Both the position numbers and the translations under genes were made by a program. Under the pieces are notes generated by a model. The model made no database searches and was not told where the DNA came from. It saw nothing but the letters and a program-made list of their open reading frames with translations. A stretch of 46,612 nt of DNA from Staphylococcus phage TPWB-09. The stretch lies in the sequence record PQ358088.1, one strand, 5' to 3'. Positions 1 through 46,612 of this stretch are shown in pieces; the first letter of the stretch is position 1; each line of letters starts with the position of its first letter.

Positions 1-729
1 AATATCAGTTTTTTGAACAATTTTTAAACTAGGTACATTTGATGTGCTTGATATAAGACGTTCTAAAATTTTCTGGTCCGTTGTTTCTAAACTGAAAAAT
101 GTTACTGGATAACCATTCCTAGCGATATTATACATCATATTTAATGCTATCGCTGTTTTACCGGCACCCGGTCTTGCGCCTAAAATAATTAACTGTGTAG
201 GCTCAAAGCCTATAATTTGTCTATCTACGTTCTCTAATCCTGTTTTAATAAATGTTTTTGGATCGTCTGACAAAAAGTTGTCTACAAACTCGATTAATTG
301 ATTTTTTAACGTGTTAACTGTTCTGATGTCGAGTTCTTCCACTTTTCGTATTTCGTCTTGCATATATAACCGATCTTTTTCAGTCATTGAGGACTTTTGA
401 AAGTCTTTAGTGATATCATTGATGGCCCTTTTCTTGTATTCTTCTAATACTTCTCGCTGTTCTTGCATAAACAGCCCTTTGATAACTTCGTCGCTGTTGT
501 ATAAACCACCTATGCGTTCGACGTTCATAAAATTATTGGTGTTTCTGGCTTTGTAATATAATTCTTTGAGATCAACCTTTCCCTCTGTAAGCAAGTAGTC
601 AATAACTGATGCTACCATTTTGTCTTGAAACATTTCCGGTTTGATTTTTAATTTTTCTAATAAATCATGGTTTTGTAGTATGTTAGCAAGAATAGACTCG
701 TCTGTCGTTAAATTAAAAACTTTATTCAT
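1..729 (-). CDS. DnaB-family replicative helicase, N-terminal two thirds (ATG at 729..727); continues in frame across the window boundary into 46073..46612
   Basis: Reverse-strand translation gives MNKVFNLTTDES...IGFEPTQLIILGARPGAGKTAIALNMMYNIARNGYPVTFFSLETTDQKILERLISSTSNVPSLKIVQKTDI, with a Walker A motif (GARPGAGKT) typical of DnaB/G40P. The reading frame is open to position 1. The codon phase is continuous with the ORF at 46073..46612. Confidence 0.85.
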   Translation of the reverse strand, partial: MNKVFNLTTDESILANILQNHDLLEKLKIKPEMFQDKMVASVIDYLLTEGKVDLKELYYKARNTNNFMNVERIGGLYNSDEVIKGLFMQEQREVLEEYKKRAINDITKDFQKSSMTEKDRLYMQDEIRKVEELDIRTVNTLKNQLIEFVDNFLSDDPKTFIKTGLENVDRQIIGFEPTQLIILGARPGAGKTAIALNMMYNIARNGYPVTFFSLETTDQKILERLISSTSNVPSLKIVQKTDI

Positions 730-1072
730 CTTCTGTTACCTCGCTTTTTAATCTATCTCTCATTTTTTCCATTTCTTTGATTACTTTTGAGTAATTCTCA
801 TCATGCTTTTTCTTGTAGGCGTGTGTTTGTGTTTCGTCTACTTCTTTCACAACTTCATTACCGGTGTTGCGATTGGTTATAATGATTTCGGAAATAGTAG
901 GCTTGAAACGGCTGCCATTACTTGCTCTGCGTTTAACATTTTTCATAGTTTCTTCGTAATCGCCACGCTCCATTAGTAATATAGCCCATGCTCTGATTTG
1001 TTTGTCCGTCATATCAATATTAAACAGATCAATTACATATTGTATTACTTCGCCGGCTTGTTGTTTATTCAT
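722..1072 (-). CDS. small 116-aa protein between DnaD-like initiator and DnaB helicase; putative helicase loader (SPP1 G39P-like by synteny)
   Basis: ORF with RBS GGAGGA. It is translationally coupled to both neighbours. The size and position match the SPP1 G38P-G39P-G40P arrangement. Function is inferred from synteny only. Confidence 0.35.
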   Translation of the reverse strand: MNKQQAGEVIQYVIDLFNIDMTDKQIRAWAILLMERGDYEETMKNVKRRASNGSRFKPTISEIIITNRNTGNEVVKEVDETQTHAYKKKHDENYSKVIKEMEKMRDRLKSEVTEDE

Positions 1073-1830
1073 TAGATATCCTCCAATACGCTTGAAACGT
1101 CCACATCTTTTTTCTTGTAAGATGTTTTATTTTCTTTACTTTGTTTTTTAGCATCTTCTAGTGTTTCCACTTTAGCAACTGCATATCTTTTAAGTTTGTT
1201 GTTAAGATAAGCGAACGACTTAGCTTTTTCTTTAACAGCTTGATCTATAGCCTCTGATATTATTTCTTCTGCCTCGTTGTTTTTGTTGAAATCTTCTACC
1301 CAATCTATCAGTTGTTGTATTTGGTTAGGGTTTAACACTCCGATGTCCTTTTGGTATTTTTGTATGCAATCGCCTTTGGCGATCTCTCTATCTGATGTAT
1401 TCTCTGATGTATTCTTTGTTAAGGAATCGTTAGTTTTTTGATAATCGTTTATTAAGTTATTTGATTTTCCATTGTTAAGTTTCTTCATAATCCAATTCGA
1501 CAAATTTTGCATATTAACTTTGTAGTGCAAAGTAGGGCTGCCGTAAGACTTTTTCAACTTAGTTTCAACCAATTCTAACTTTTTTAACTTGTCTACAGCT
1601 TTCTTAACTTGATATTGCGACAAAAAAACTTCTTCTTGCCACTCTTTATAACTTTTATAAAAATACCCATCATTTCTACTACTTCTATCAGACCAATATA
1701 TTAATTGATTAAGCATAACTGCTACGTTATAATCTTCTAATAATTCTAAATATAATACTGGTATGTTTATAGTTCGTTGTTGACCACTATAACTAATTAT
1801 TAAATTACTTATCATTTGGCGATTATCCAT
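1072..1830 (-). CDS. DnaD-domain replication initiator / replisome organizer
   Basis: C-terminal region IQQLIDWVEDFNKNNEAEEIISEAIDQAVKEKAKSFAYLNNKLKRY is a typical DnaD-like domain. The N-terminus resembles phage replisome organizer. RBS AAAGGAG. Confidence 0.75.
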   Translation of the reverse strand: MDNRQMISNLIISYSGQQRTINIPVLYLELLEDYNVAVMLNQLIYWSDRSSRNDGYFYKSYKEWQEEVFLSQYQVKKAVDKLKKLELVETKLKKSYGSPTLHYKVNMQNLSNWIMKKLNNGKSNNLINDYQKTNDSLTKNTSENTSDREIAKGDCIQKYQKDIGVLNPNQIQQLIDWVEDFNKNNEAEEIISEAIDQAVKEKAKSFAYLNNKLKRYAVAKVETLEDAKKQSKENKTSYKKKDVDVSSVLEDI

Positions 1831-1842
1831 TGCGTTACTCCT

Positions 1843-2079
1843 TTAACCTTTTATAAATTCTTCAAATTCTTTTGCACCGTTTGCTAACCAATTAACATCA
1901 ACATTCAAAACATCTGCTATTTTCTTTAGTGATTTTGGTCTAGGTTTAGTTCGATCATGCTCCCACCTAGATAATAATGTGTAATCTACGCCTAAAAGTT
2001 CGGCACACTCTACAACCCCTAATATTCTAAACTCTCTAGCTTTCCTAATTCTTTGACCTATTGTTTTAATTTCGTTCAT
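1843..2079 (-). CDS. XRE-family HTH transcriptional regulator (Cro-like)
   Basis: 78 aa; IGQRIRKAREFRILGVVECAELLGVDYTLLSRWEHDRTKP is a classic XRE helix-turn-helix. RBS AAGGAGG. Confidence 0.75.
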   Translation of the reverse strand: MNEIKTIGQRIRKAREFRILGVVECAELLGVDYTLLSRWEHDRTKPRPKSLKKIADVLNVDVNWLANGAKEFEEFIKG

Positions 2080-2091
2080 ATCAAAACGCCT

Positions 2092-2136
2092 CCTTTATTA
2101 CATTGTAACACTTTTTGCCCTAAATTGTAACAAAAA
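2092..2136 (-). promoter_or_regulatory. sigma-A-like promoter with direct repeat (A)TTGTAACA x2 upstream of the Cro-like gene (minus-strand reading TTACAA-N17-TACAAT)
   Basis: Plus strand reads cattgtaacactttttgccctaaattgtaacaaaaaaatc. On the coding strand the repeat supplies both -35-like and -10-like hexamers at 17-nt spacing, making an operator-like repeat. Confidence 0.35.
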
Positions 2137-2138
2137 AA

Positions 2139-45174: not shown

Positions 45175-45203
45175 AGTTTACCATTTATAAGTGTAGTTGT
45201 AAA
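45175..45203 (-). promoter_or_regulatory. early promoter variant P4 (TTTACA-N17-TAAACT; spacer related to P1-P3)
   Basis: Plus strand reads agtttaccatttataagtgtagttgtaaa. Confidence 0.4.
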
Positions 45204-45211
45204 ATATTTTA

Positions 45212-45236
45212 TTTAAAAGGGCGTTAAGCCCTTTAT
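45212..45236 (-). terminator. terminator hairpin AGGGC-GTTAA-GCCCT with flanking A/T runs, after the SSB gene
   Basis: tttaaaagggcgttaagccctttat. Confidence 0.45.
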
Positions 45237-45256
45237 AGTATTTTTTAATTACACAA

Positions 45257-45712
45257 TTAGAACGGTAGATCGTCGTCTTGTATGTCGGGCGATCCGTTGG
45301 AATTTGCGAACGGATTGTCTGTTGGTGTGTTGCCTGACTGTTGGTTATTATTGCCTCTCTGTTGTCCTTGTGAAACATTGTTACTTCCGTTGCCTTTAGG
45401 CTCTAAAAATTGAACGCTATCAGCCACTACCTCCGTAACAAAAACTCGTTTCCCTTCGTTGTTTTCATAACTGCGTGACTGCATTCGTCCGTCAACGCCT
45501 GCCAAACTCCCTTTGGCTAAATAATGACTTACGTTTTCTGCTTGTTTTCTAAATACTACAACATTAATGAAATCAGCCTCACGCTCTCCTTGTGCATTGG
45601 TAAAAGGTCTATTAACTGCCAAAGTGAAATTCGCAATGCTCACGCCAGATTGTGTTGCTCTGTATTCCGGGTCTTTCGTTAGTCGTCCTACTAAAATAGT
45701 TCTATTAATCAT
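45257..45712 (-). CDS. ssb: single-stranded DNA-binding protein
   Basis: [35 protein letters not shown]...; Gly/Asn/Gln-rich tail ending DDDLPF. RBS AGGAGG. Confidence 0.9.
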
Positions 45713-45817
45713 TATATTTTCCTCCTGTGCATTATGTATTAAATGCCTCTATTTTTAATTTTAAGGTGGTTTTTAGCCACTTCTTTTTGTTTATGGATAA
45801 ATTGCCCCTAAAAACAT

Positions 45818-46072
45818 TTAGTCGTTATATAAGGGCTGTAAATATCCTTTTTTGACAAGCCAATCATTCATGCTTTGGTAGTCTATATTTTCTAGTACCT
45901 TATTCATGTTCTCTTTGTTATCTAAAGTGTCGAAAAATATTAACGTGCCATCTTCTAATAATCTATTAATACTCTTGCCGAACGCCATAATGTGTAGCTG
46001 CACTATCGGATCGTCGGTCTGTTTATATAGTCGCCTTAACGCTTTTAGTTCATCTTCAATCGTGTTGAACAT
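45818..46072 (-). CDS. hypothetical protein (84 aa), ATG overlapping the helicase stop (TAAATG)
   Basis: ORF in operon context. Confidence 0.5.
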   Translation of the reverse strand: MFNTIEDELKALRRLYKQTDDPIVQLHIMAFGKSINRLLEDGTLIFFDTLDNKENMNKVLENIDYQSMNDWLVKKGYLQPLYND

Positions 46073-46612
46073 TTAAATGACCTTGCTTGTAAATTTTTGT
46101 GTGAATTTGTGGAAGTTTAACGGTACCATGCCGACCATGCCGTCCCTGTTCTTCGCTACATTACACTCCACTTCCGATATCCCTGTTTCTTTATCTTGCA
46201 AACTCTCGTCGTAATAATCTTCCCTGTATAAAAATAATACCATGTTTGCGTCTTGCTCGATCCCTCCACTTTCTCTCAAATCTGAAAGCATCGGCCTTTT
46301 ATCTTGTCTGCTTTCTACACCTCTACTCAATTGCGATAGGGCTATAATAACGCAGTTGTTTTCTTTAGCTATTAATTTTAAATCACGACTGATTTTATCA
46401 ACTTCTAATCTTCTTTCTTGCTGTGGTTTATCTGAATTTAAAAGCTGTAGGTAATCAATAAAAACTACATGAGGCTTGTCGTATTGTTTCATTGTCGCTT
46501 GCCTTACATCTTGCTGCGTAACATATCCTTTGTCTACAATCTCGAAACCTGTTTCGTGAAAACCGTTGATCGTGTCTACTGATTTCATTACACGGTTTGC
46601 CTCGCTGTCTGT
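46073..46612 (-). CDS. DnaB-family replicative helicase, C-terminal third (stop at 46073..46075); same gene as 1..729
   Basis: ...HVVFIDYLQLLNSDKPQQERRLEVDKISRDLKLIAKENNCVIIALSQLSRGVESRQDKRPMLSDLRESGGIEQDANMVLFLYREDYY carries DnaB motifs H3, H4 and the arginine finger. The frame is open to 46612 and in phase with position 1. Confidence 0.85.
   Translation of the reverse strand, partial: TDSEANRVMKSVDTINGFHETGFEIVDKGYVTQQDVRQATMKQYDKPHVVFIDYLQLLNSDKPQQERRLEVDKISRDLKLIAKENNCVIIALSQLSRGVESRQDKRPMLSDLRESGGIEQDANMVLFLYREDYYDESLQDKETGISEVECNVAKNRDGMVGMVPLNFHKFTQKFTSKVI

Follow-up and report, generated by a model that had tools for sequence, protein, structure and literature searches.

Staphylococcus phage TPWB-09: a DnaB helicase gene divided between the ends of a very probably complete, integrase-less siphovirus genome

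The helicase gene at the ends of the sequence and the closure of the assembly

The 46,612-bp sequence of Staphylococcus phage TPWB-09 (PQ358088.1), which in its full length is referred to here as the window, has about 74 genes and ends on both sides inside the gene of a DnaB-type replicative helicase (Table 1). When reverse-complemented, both end pieces are multiples of three, one having 243 codons and the other 179 codons plus the stop codon, and the in-frame product of the joined pieces is a DnaB/G40P-type helicase of 422 residues. Agreement in phase alone is expected by chance in one case out of three, which does not apply to the further observations given below. The peptide over the join reads ...SNVPSLKIVQKTDI|TDSEANRVMKSVDTINGF...VVFIDYLQLL, with the immediate break at KIVQKTDI|TDSEANRV, and is identical to the joined peptide quoted in the first-pass annotation, which had been made from the letters of the window. 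The exact codon phase claimed there is also confirmed, but the product length of 423 residues is not, as 423 codons are counted only when the stop codon is included.

The join, between residues 243 and 244, is located within one RecA-type domain, between the Walker A motif (residues 185-192) and the IDYLQL motif (295-300). In the joined protein the Walker A, Walker B (IDYLQL), SQLSR and RESG motifs are found in their normal order and with normal spacing. The Pfam DnaB_C model matches residues 161-418 without a break (profile positions 2-254 of 255, E=6e-77), including the join, and the N-terminal Pfam DnaB model does not match the joined protein. The geometry of the alignment is the same when considering the structures of Geobacillus DnaB (2vye and 2r6a), where the alignment is unbroken over the join and gap-free at this point, the lone gap, of three residues, being about 20 residues downstream. 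When compared with SPP1 G40P (3bgw_A), residues 6-414 align with residues 14-431 of the chain, also without a break (E=1e-48). The usual distance from Walker A to IDYLQL that was stated earlier, and the alignment to DnaB/G40P that was suggested there as a check, are borne out by these comparisons.

The homologue-bearing contigs that were compared with the window are labelled L002-L006, L011-L013, L015, L016 and L026-L033. Synthetic junctions of 6 kb and 200 nt, made from the joined ends, were aligned to contigs from other samples. The 6-kb junction gives a single high-scoring segment pair through the break in L002-L006, and the 200-nt junction aligns to the same five contigs with zero gaps at 89-94% identity. 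The junction is also gap-free in L011 and L012 (95-96%) and in L016, which brings the total to eight independent contigs, from different samples, that are gap-free at the join with 89-96% nucleotide identity. An exact 40-nt junction string has no match in IMG/VR, and peptide patterns derived from DnaB find nothing in IMG/VR or in the GTDB species representatives, in which each species is represented by one genome.

Among 5.8 billion proteins searched, 231 DnaB homologues have E<=1e-100, and nearly all of the full-length ones are one gene of 422-423 residues. In the range of 90-99.5% identity practically every homologue is one gene of 422 residues, the best being identical at 420 of the 422 positions; the protein P0001, listed as 100% identical, was discarded as an identical copy, this being a rounded figure with two of the 422 codons differing. 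The same arrangement is seen when considering the adjacent gene: a helicase loader protein identical to that of the window is encoded on 11 other contigs, and wherever the contig reaches far enough an intact 422-residue DnaB gene is found next to it, the short contigs ending inside this downstream gene. The joined DnaB gene differs from that of L011 by 30 synonymous and 2 non-synonymous codons and from that of L012 by 58 synonymous and 5 non-synonymous codons, and this synonymous excess indicates purifying selection on the joined frame at both sides of the join. As judged from these comparisons, the two end fragments are a single functional helicase gene under purifying selection.

The closure of the assembly is further seen when the window is compared with the nearest cultured phages, the Staphylococcus epidermidis siphoviruses CUB-EPI_14, Lacachita, Sazerac and Southeast, which form an unclassified genus with genomes of 46.1-47.3 kb. 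The 74 minus-strand open reading frames (ORFs) that were delineated for this comparison map on CUB-EPI_14 (46,098 bp) colinearly over one full turn, from 33,126 to 46,087 and from 1 to 33,121, and the colinearity is broken only by cassettes without a counterpart there. The order through the join, being helicase loader, DnaB, a conserved 84-residue protein and the single-stranded DNA-binding protein (SSB), is that of gp34-gp37 of CUB-EPI_14. Every expected module is found in the window with PHROGs and Pfam (terS/terL, portal, head, tail, lysis, recombination and replication), no transfer RNA gene or host or bacterial gene is present in it, and complete relatives are of matching length (45.1-47.3 kb). 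The first and last 10-20-mers of the window each occur once, and a terminal repeat is therefore absent. The contigs of the relatives, of 45.1, 45.4, 45.9 and 47.1 kb, are opened elsewhere, L003 in the early region and L012 inside the Erf gene, as is expected when a circular assembly graph is linearised arbitrarily. The GC skew of the window falls monotonically and gives no origin signal.

By these sequence comparisons the assembly is closed, with nothing lost and nothing duplicated. The earlier claim of one DnaB gene split over the ends of a whole circular or circularly permuted genome is supported by the join, the synteny and the full set of modules. The window is very probably the complete genome of an uncultured, integrase-less Staphylococcus siphovirus, most likely lytic, whose circular assembly was linearised arbitrarily inside the DnaB gene. 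Linearisation of a circular assembly routinely splits a gene in this way, as is also seen for terS in the circular RefSeq record of SPP1. For practical use it is suitable to handle the window as a complete genome, with DnaB annotated as one gene and with the sequence rotated to the start of terS.

Lifestyle of the phage

The phage appears to be non-integrating and is most probably lytic, a transient carrier state being possible. None of the early or unassigned window proteins, including those encoded at 3110-3715 and 3730-4365, matches an integrase or recombinase in PHROGs or Pfam, and there is no ParA, protelomerase, plasmid-type partition or toxin-antitoxin gene among the window proteins. 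Every plausible gene is on the minus strand, as had been noted before, conserved plus-strand genes are not found, and with a largest intergenic gap of 204 nt there is no coding space unaccounted for. The absence of an integrase and of a divergent repressor reported in the first-pass annotation is borne out at each of these levels (PHROGs and Pfam, intergenic space and plus-strand ORFs), and the Cro-like helix-turn-helix (HTH) protein and the antirepressor mentioned there are both found (Table 1). The plus-strand ORFs were considered as divergent repressors and rejected, all of them being antisense inside minus-strand genes; the sole one that reaches an intergenic gap (7874-8158) has stop codons in 95%-identical relatives.

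In temperate staphylococcal siphoviruses the int/cI genes are located at the boundary where the lysis genes meet the early genes, whereas no lysogeny module is present at this boundary in the window. In five relatives (L002, L011, L013, L015 and L016, with DnaB identities of 82-99%) the lysin gene is likewise followed directly by early genes on the same strand, without a lysogeny module, so that the lack of an integrase is a stable property of the whole lineage rather than the defect of one assembly. DnaB homologues with at least 72% identity are found on contigs of at most 49 kb, plus one scaffold of 58.7 kb, whereas homologues with about 52% identity are found on bacterial contigs of 115-784 kb. 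The latter are of the type of the StB12, CNPH82 and phiIPLA5 group of temperate siphoviruses of coagulase-negative staphylococci and of prophages of Staphylococcus sp., which share with the window the replication module (DnaB 50-52%) and the lysin architecture and which, on contigs of this size, are integrated prophages; the lineage of the window, unlike these, is never found linked to host DNA and has neither an integrase nor a divergent repressor.

The search of bacterial genomes for integrated copies, with DnaB and TerL in the GTDB species representatives, finds none within the clade, and the DnaB peptide scan of these genomes gives no related locus. The TerL-bearing prophages of Sporolactobacillus, Planococcus and Indiicoccus were rejected as integrated relatives, having only terS/terL and scattered SSB or RecU genes in common with the window. 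PLSDB contains no nucleotide match to the window, and its capsid matches (24-29% identity) are records of Bacillus, Paenibacillus, Clostridium and Latilactobacillus, none of them staphylococcal. The lifestyle, which had earlier been left open between virulent, episomal and integrated, is narrowed by these observations, no integrated or plasmid copy being found and the absence of an integrase extending over the lineage.

Several points weigh against a lytic lifestyle. It is deduced from absences, and as GTDB holds one genome per species, the absence of prophages there is weak evidence. The window encodes an HTH_3 protein, an antirepressor-like protein and a small Xis/MerR-like HTH protein. For the sister genus, the prediction by PhageAI is 'temperate', transductants that were exposed to Lacachita are 100-fold less sensitive, and a 46.7-kb contig having only phage sequence is present in the assembly of an S. 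epidermidis isolate (PMC10286716).

It is conceivable, as has been proposed for Lacachita, that the circle is a real intracellular replicon, being an extrachromosomal plasmid-like prophage or a stable carrier state, with the HTH and antirepressor proteins acting as a switch and a ParB-domain protein aiding maintenance, but this is considered unlikely. The Cro/CI-type HTH protein, the antirepressor-like protein and the two ParB_N-domain proteins of the window are in line with such a replicon, as are the longer HTH_3 protein (117 residues) of some relatives (L012 and L016) and the transduction, reduced sensitivity and phage-only contig described for Lacachita and S. epidermidis (PMC10286716). 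However, ParB_N is found only as the N-terminal domain of two N6/N4 DNA methyltransferases. The methyltransferase cassette is not present in the 45.9-kb L012, where the upstream genes run directly into terS, nor is it seen upstream of terS in L002 and L003, whereas the pair is found in the window and in L013; with this distribution, it is not an essential maintenance function of the lineage. Neither is there a ParA, protelomerase, plasmid-type partition or toxin-antitoxin gene, a CI-sized repressor or a divergent promoter arrangement, and the staphylococcal plasmid records of PLSDB give no nucleotide or capsid match. Equally doubtful is a stable extrachromosomal persistence in coagulase-negative staphylococci without ParA or a known partition system, in which the variable HTH/antirepressor cassette and the five early promoters would form a switch between lysis and latency.

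The two methyltransferase genes are tandem paralogues just upstream of terS, with a direct repeat of 300 nt (73% identity). They appear to be of the gene type that is named 'ParB' in the Lacachita paper, when equated through the annotations of the CUB-EPI_14, Sazerac and S-CoN genes; the matching genes are annotated as 'DNA modification methylase', 'adenine methyltransferase' and 'ParB-like partition nuclease'. The argument for an episome in that paper rests on a 'ParB' (PMC10286716). Both the fusion with a methyltransferase and the dispensability of the cassette weaken this argument for a partition by ParB only, and neither of them settles the lifestyle. The lifestyle of the sister genus is already under debate in the literature, and the suitability of this phage group for therapy is disputed, the phages being described as lytic (PMC9230115, PMC13064016) or as possibly episomal and temperate (PMC10286716).

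The 58,687-bp scaffold L013 (ENA ERZ28617541, MUNK18-1 scaffold_192; DnaB 82% identical), of which positions 2476-23744 were read, has a normal phage architecture in this region and is about 11 kb longer than the genome unit. Host DNA, a wrap-around repeat or a genome larger than the unit could each account for the additional length.

Packaging, virion DNA and proposed life cycle

For the virion DNA, a linear form with terminal redundancy and circular permutation is probable, as suggested by the TerL protein (Terminase_6N/6C), which is 69% identical to TerL of CUB-EPI_14. For the latter phage, headful packaging with a pac site has been deduced from terminase comparison and PhageTerm (PMC9230115). 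The earlier term 'circular' is correct for the assembly; for the packaged DNA it is less apt, as homology to the same relative makes linear, circularly permuted molecules more likely (PMC9230115). We infer that the circle is the assembly's picture of the virion DNA, and also of a replicative intermediate. Related observations are that Lacachita transduces plasmids (PMC10286716) and that six relatives have circular assemblies with junctions confirmed by polymerase chain reaction (PMC13064016). More distant TerL matches, with 24-38% identity, are found in actinophages and in siphoviruses of Klebsiella, Escherichia and Shigella. We take the latter to be T1-like phages, and both these groups and the actinophages to be circularly permuted packagers. 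TerS of the relatives has a weak match to GP3_package, which is P22 gp3-like. Some caution is required, as the headful assignment depends on the 69% TerL identity to one typed relative, and no PDB entry matches the TerL sequence.

A genome with fixed ends, either cos ends or short direct terminal repeats, would also assemble as a circle, through joined cohesive ends or a collapsed repeat, and the window would then be complete but not permuted. This is very unlikely when considering the 69% TerL identity to a phage typed by PhageTerm as pac/headful, the Terminase_6N/6C family of TerL, the weak GP3_package match of TerS in the relatives, the generalised transduction by a relative and the contigs of relatives, which break at scattered points away from terS. 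That the DnaB fragments come from separate loci of a larger replicon, the window being an integrated prophage, a tandem copy or a chimeric contig, has a negligible probability: the window ends do fall inside ORFs, with nothing further in favour, but the phase is exact, eight independent contigs are gap-free over the break, both flanks of the join are syntenic with complete genomes, host and transfer RNA genes are absent and the length is that of complete relatives, so that the concern about different loci raised with the first-pass annotation is effectively refuted by the synteny and the gap-free contigs.

For a phage with circularly permuted virion DNA, an SPP1-like life cycle is inferred by analogy. 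The injected linear, terminally redundant DNA would circularise by recombination, with the Erf protein, the Gam-like protein and RecU. Early transcription would start from five sigma-A-type promoters, and the DnaD-like initiator and the small loader would put the DnaB helicase on the origin. Replication would generate concatemers, which TerS/TerL would cut at a pac site, the heads being filled by the headful mechanism; DNA packaged in this way would be circularly permuted, from which assemblers close a circle.

The predicted early promoters are copies of one promoter-like element (Table 1). Three of the copies are near-identical (0-2 mismatches), with TG ahead of the -10 hexamer, and two degenerate copies, at 8774-8802 and 45175-45203, have 7 and 5 mismatches, respectively. 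Each copy is upstream of an early transcription unit, and a T-run precedes most of them. The element recurs at equivalent coding-strand sites in the relatives of about 90% identity (L002, L011, L012 and L016) and is not present in CUB-EPI_14 or in the 82% group. The conservation of the spacer suggests a putative binding site for a regulator.

SPP1, a virulent pac/headful siphovirus of Bacillus (44 kb), has the same order of initiator (gene 38), loader (gene 39) and helicase (G40P, gene 40) as the window, and also shares the gp7-like minor head protein with a scaffold, the absence of a protease and the one-strand organisation. By BLAST, the matches are limited to DnaB (40% over 260 residues), the SSB, one neck protein and the repeats of the tape measure, and the recombination genes are different, being Erf/Gam-like in the window and RecT/RecE-like in SPP1. 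SPP1 is a functional analogue of this phage and not a relative.

Relatives, variable regions and gene map

The host is Staphylococcus, as judged from the sequence relationships: staphylococci are the hosts of all the nearest phages, a full-length comparison of the endolysin with lysins of Staphylococcus phages gives 52-57% identity, and an 82%-identical DnaB is encoded on a contig binned in a metagenome-assembled genome of Staphylococcus kloosii. Several of the samples carrying the lineage are labelled MUNK18-1, which we take to be a re-assembly of the pig and broiler faecal metagenomes of Munk et al. 2018, and some of the metagenome samples are presumably livestock-faecal.

The CUB-EPI_14 group has in common with the window the whole gene order, the use of one strand, the absence of an integrase, a similar size and circular assemblies, together with the module types of terS/terL, head, tail, Erf/Gam, loader, DnaB, SSB, RecU and the ParB_N-methyltransferases. 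At the sequence level the differences are considerable. The amino-acid identity to CUB-EPI_14 is 30-78% over about 41 of the 74 ORFs, with 53% for the major capsid protein and 61% for DnaB when considering the group; the capsid protein, for which this 53% is the nearest cultured homologue, has next homologues of 32% or less. With megablast only short segments of 71-78% are found against the CUB-EPI_14/Lacachita group. No counterpart in CUB-EPI_14 is detected for the window initiator (DnaD-like, in place of a 'primosome protein'), for the antirepressor (Ant)/HTH cassette, for the holin and for many small early genes, and a cytosine methyltransferase and a nucleoside deoxyribosyltransferase, unlike in the CUB-EPI_14 group, are not detected in the window. 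Rfam has no match in the window, which therefore has no group I intron of the kind reported in Lacachita. About 48% of the window aligns with CUB-EPI_14 at about 69% identity, corresponding to an intergenomic similarity of about 33%. The genus criterion of the International Committee on Taxonomy of Viruses is a nucleotide intergenomic similarity of at least 70%, so that the window represents a new species and, when this criterion is applied, also a new genus.

Much closer are the uncultured relatives ENA ERZ12290372 NODE_1448, Logan SRR28523062_35834, SRR28523148_36017 and SRR36187836_335774, and MUNK18-1 scaffold_220. These have the same architecture and a length of 45-47 kb, with 89-96% nucleotide identity in the shared regions, DnaB identities of 96-99.5% and identical loader and Gam-like proteins, and they differ from the window in a mosaic Ant/HTH cassette, having AntA/ORF6C in some and pRha/ANT in others, with an HTH protein of 78 or 117 residues. 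The phage is of a known kind that is well represented in metagenomes, and it belongs to an uncultured sister lineage of the small, integrase-less group of Staphylococcus siphoviruses.

The hypervariable cassette is located just upstream of the initiator gene (window 1843-3100, L011 7479-8853, L012 4246-5712, L013 7887-8660 and L015 7217-8750). In genomes that are about 90% identical it occurs as AntA/ORF6C, pRha/ANT or AntA/ANT, with a varying gene order, and in L015 without an Ant or HTH protein recognised by Pfam. Homing-endonuclease genes of the NUMOD4/HNH_3 type are found in L011 (2799-3341 and 11635-12255), L012 (8429-9049) and L015 (12131-12676). One insertion site separates the Gam-like gene from the Erf gene and the other separates the 84-residue protein gene from SSB, and as the window is empty at both sites, these are presence/absence polymorphisms. 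Other genera of the Bacillota encode TerL homologues of 47-61% identity on long bacterial contigs (L026-L033: Sporolactobacillus, Planomicrobium/Planococcus, Indiicoccus, Lactiplantibacillus and Bacillus), several of which carry an adjacent terS (26-51%). With almost no other phage genes in common, the terminase module has been exchanged across genera.

The gene map (Table 1) is based on PHROGs and Pfam, including precomputed Pfam matches for the relatives of about 90% identity.

Table 1. Positions of genes and other features in the window
Feature	Position	Strand	Basis or remark
DnaB-type replicative helicase, codons 1-243	1..729	minus	ATG 729-727, open to base 1; Walker A ARPGAGKT 185-192
Helicase loader, 116 aa	722..1072	minus	phrog_2289; position of SPP1 gene 39
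DnaD-like replication initiator/replisome organiser, 252 aa	1072..1830	minus	Pfam DnaB_2 in relatives; position of SPP1 gene 38
HTH_3/HTH_19 (Cro/CI-type) DNA-binding protein, 78 aa	1843..2079	minus, same as all genes	profile matches
Antirepressor-like protein, 233 aa	2139..2840	minus	AntA + ORF6C in relatives; phrog_373, 2e-46; in variable cassette
Winged-helix protein, 87 aa	2837..3100	minus	resembles N-terminal domain of replication initiators
The only two proteins of at least 200 aa without assignment	3110-3715, 3730-4365	minus	low-complexity membrane or secreted look
Promoter-like element TTTACAAGTACAGTTATATATGGTATAGT (TTTACA-N17-TATAGT), five copies	4612-4640, 8158-8186, 8619-8647, 8774-8802, 45175-45203	minus	
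Erf-type single-stranded DNA-annealing protein	6276-6956	minus	recombination pair 6276..7455
Sipho_Gp157/Gam-like protein	6970-7455	minus	recombination pair 6276..7455
Largest intergenic gap, 204 nt	8604..8807	minus	lysis/early gene boundary; two tandem TTTACA-N17-TATAGT promoter-like sites
Endolysin	8808-10277	minus	CHAP/Amidase_2/SH3_5; lysis cassette 8808..11049
Holin, 256 aa	10279-11049	minus	Phage_holin_1; long acidic low-complexity C-terminal tail
Tail and connector module	11168..28445	minus	PHROGs/Pfam and CUB-EPI_14 matches; chaperones, connectors, fibres included
BppU-like protein	12146-13666	minus	tail module
Pectate-lyase-like fibre	13680-16304	minus	tail module
Tal with lysozyme/M23 domains	16305-18770	minus	tail module
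Dit	18776-19612	minus	tail module
Tape measure	19616-24400	minus	tail module
Major tail protein	25492-26013	minus	tail module
Major capsid protein	28518-29543	minus	head module 28518..33572
Scaffold	30058-30681	minus	head module
SPP1 gp7-like minor head protein	30933-31979	minus	head module
Portal	31986-33572	minus	head module
TerL	33592-34989	minus	Terminase_6N/6C; 69% identical to CUB-EPI_14 TerL
TerS	35048-35569	minus	phrog_309
ParB_N + N6_N4 DNA methyltransferase fusions, tandem pair	35723-37213, 37229-38317	minus	35723..38317
RecU-type Holliday-junction resolvase	41187..41669	minus	PHROGs/Pfam
Dimeric-type dUTPase/NTP-pyrophosphohydrolase	42633-43166	minus	phrog_173; dUTPase_2 in relatives
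SSB	45257..45712	minus	CUB-EPI_14 match
Conserved 84-aa gene	45818..46072	minus	directly downstream of DnaB; homologue of CUB-EPI_14 gp36
DnaB-type replicative helicase, codons 244-422 and stop	46073..46612	minus	open to base 46612; IDYLQL 295-300, SQLSR 336-340, RESG 356-359

Exact look-ups of the 84-residue protein and of the capsid protein return no record. The dUTPase is of the dimeric-type class, which in S. aureus phages acts as a derepressor of SaPI islands. The longest ORF of the lysin gene (8808-10373, 521 residues) overlaps the holin gene by 95 nt, and the lysin called in the relatives has 489 residues, corresponding to an ATG at 10277, one base past the holin stop codon.

A plus-strand ORF of 614 residues (21153-22997) was considered as a gene and judged to be an artefact, being antisense to the tape-measure repeats with a low-complexity, hydrophobic mirror translation. 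It is unusually long for DNA of about 40% GC and overlies about six tandem repeats of 132 nt, which encode 44-residue 'AIWNGIK' units. This ORF is probably a by-product of the codon pattern of the tape-measure repeats.

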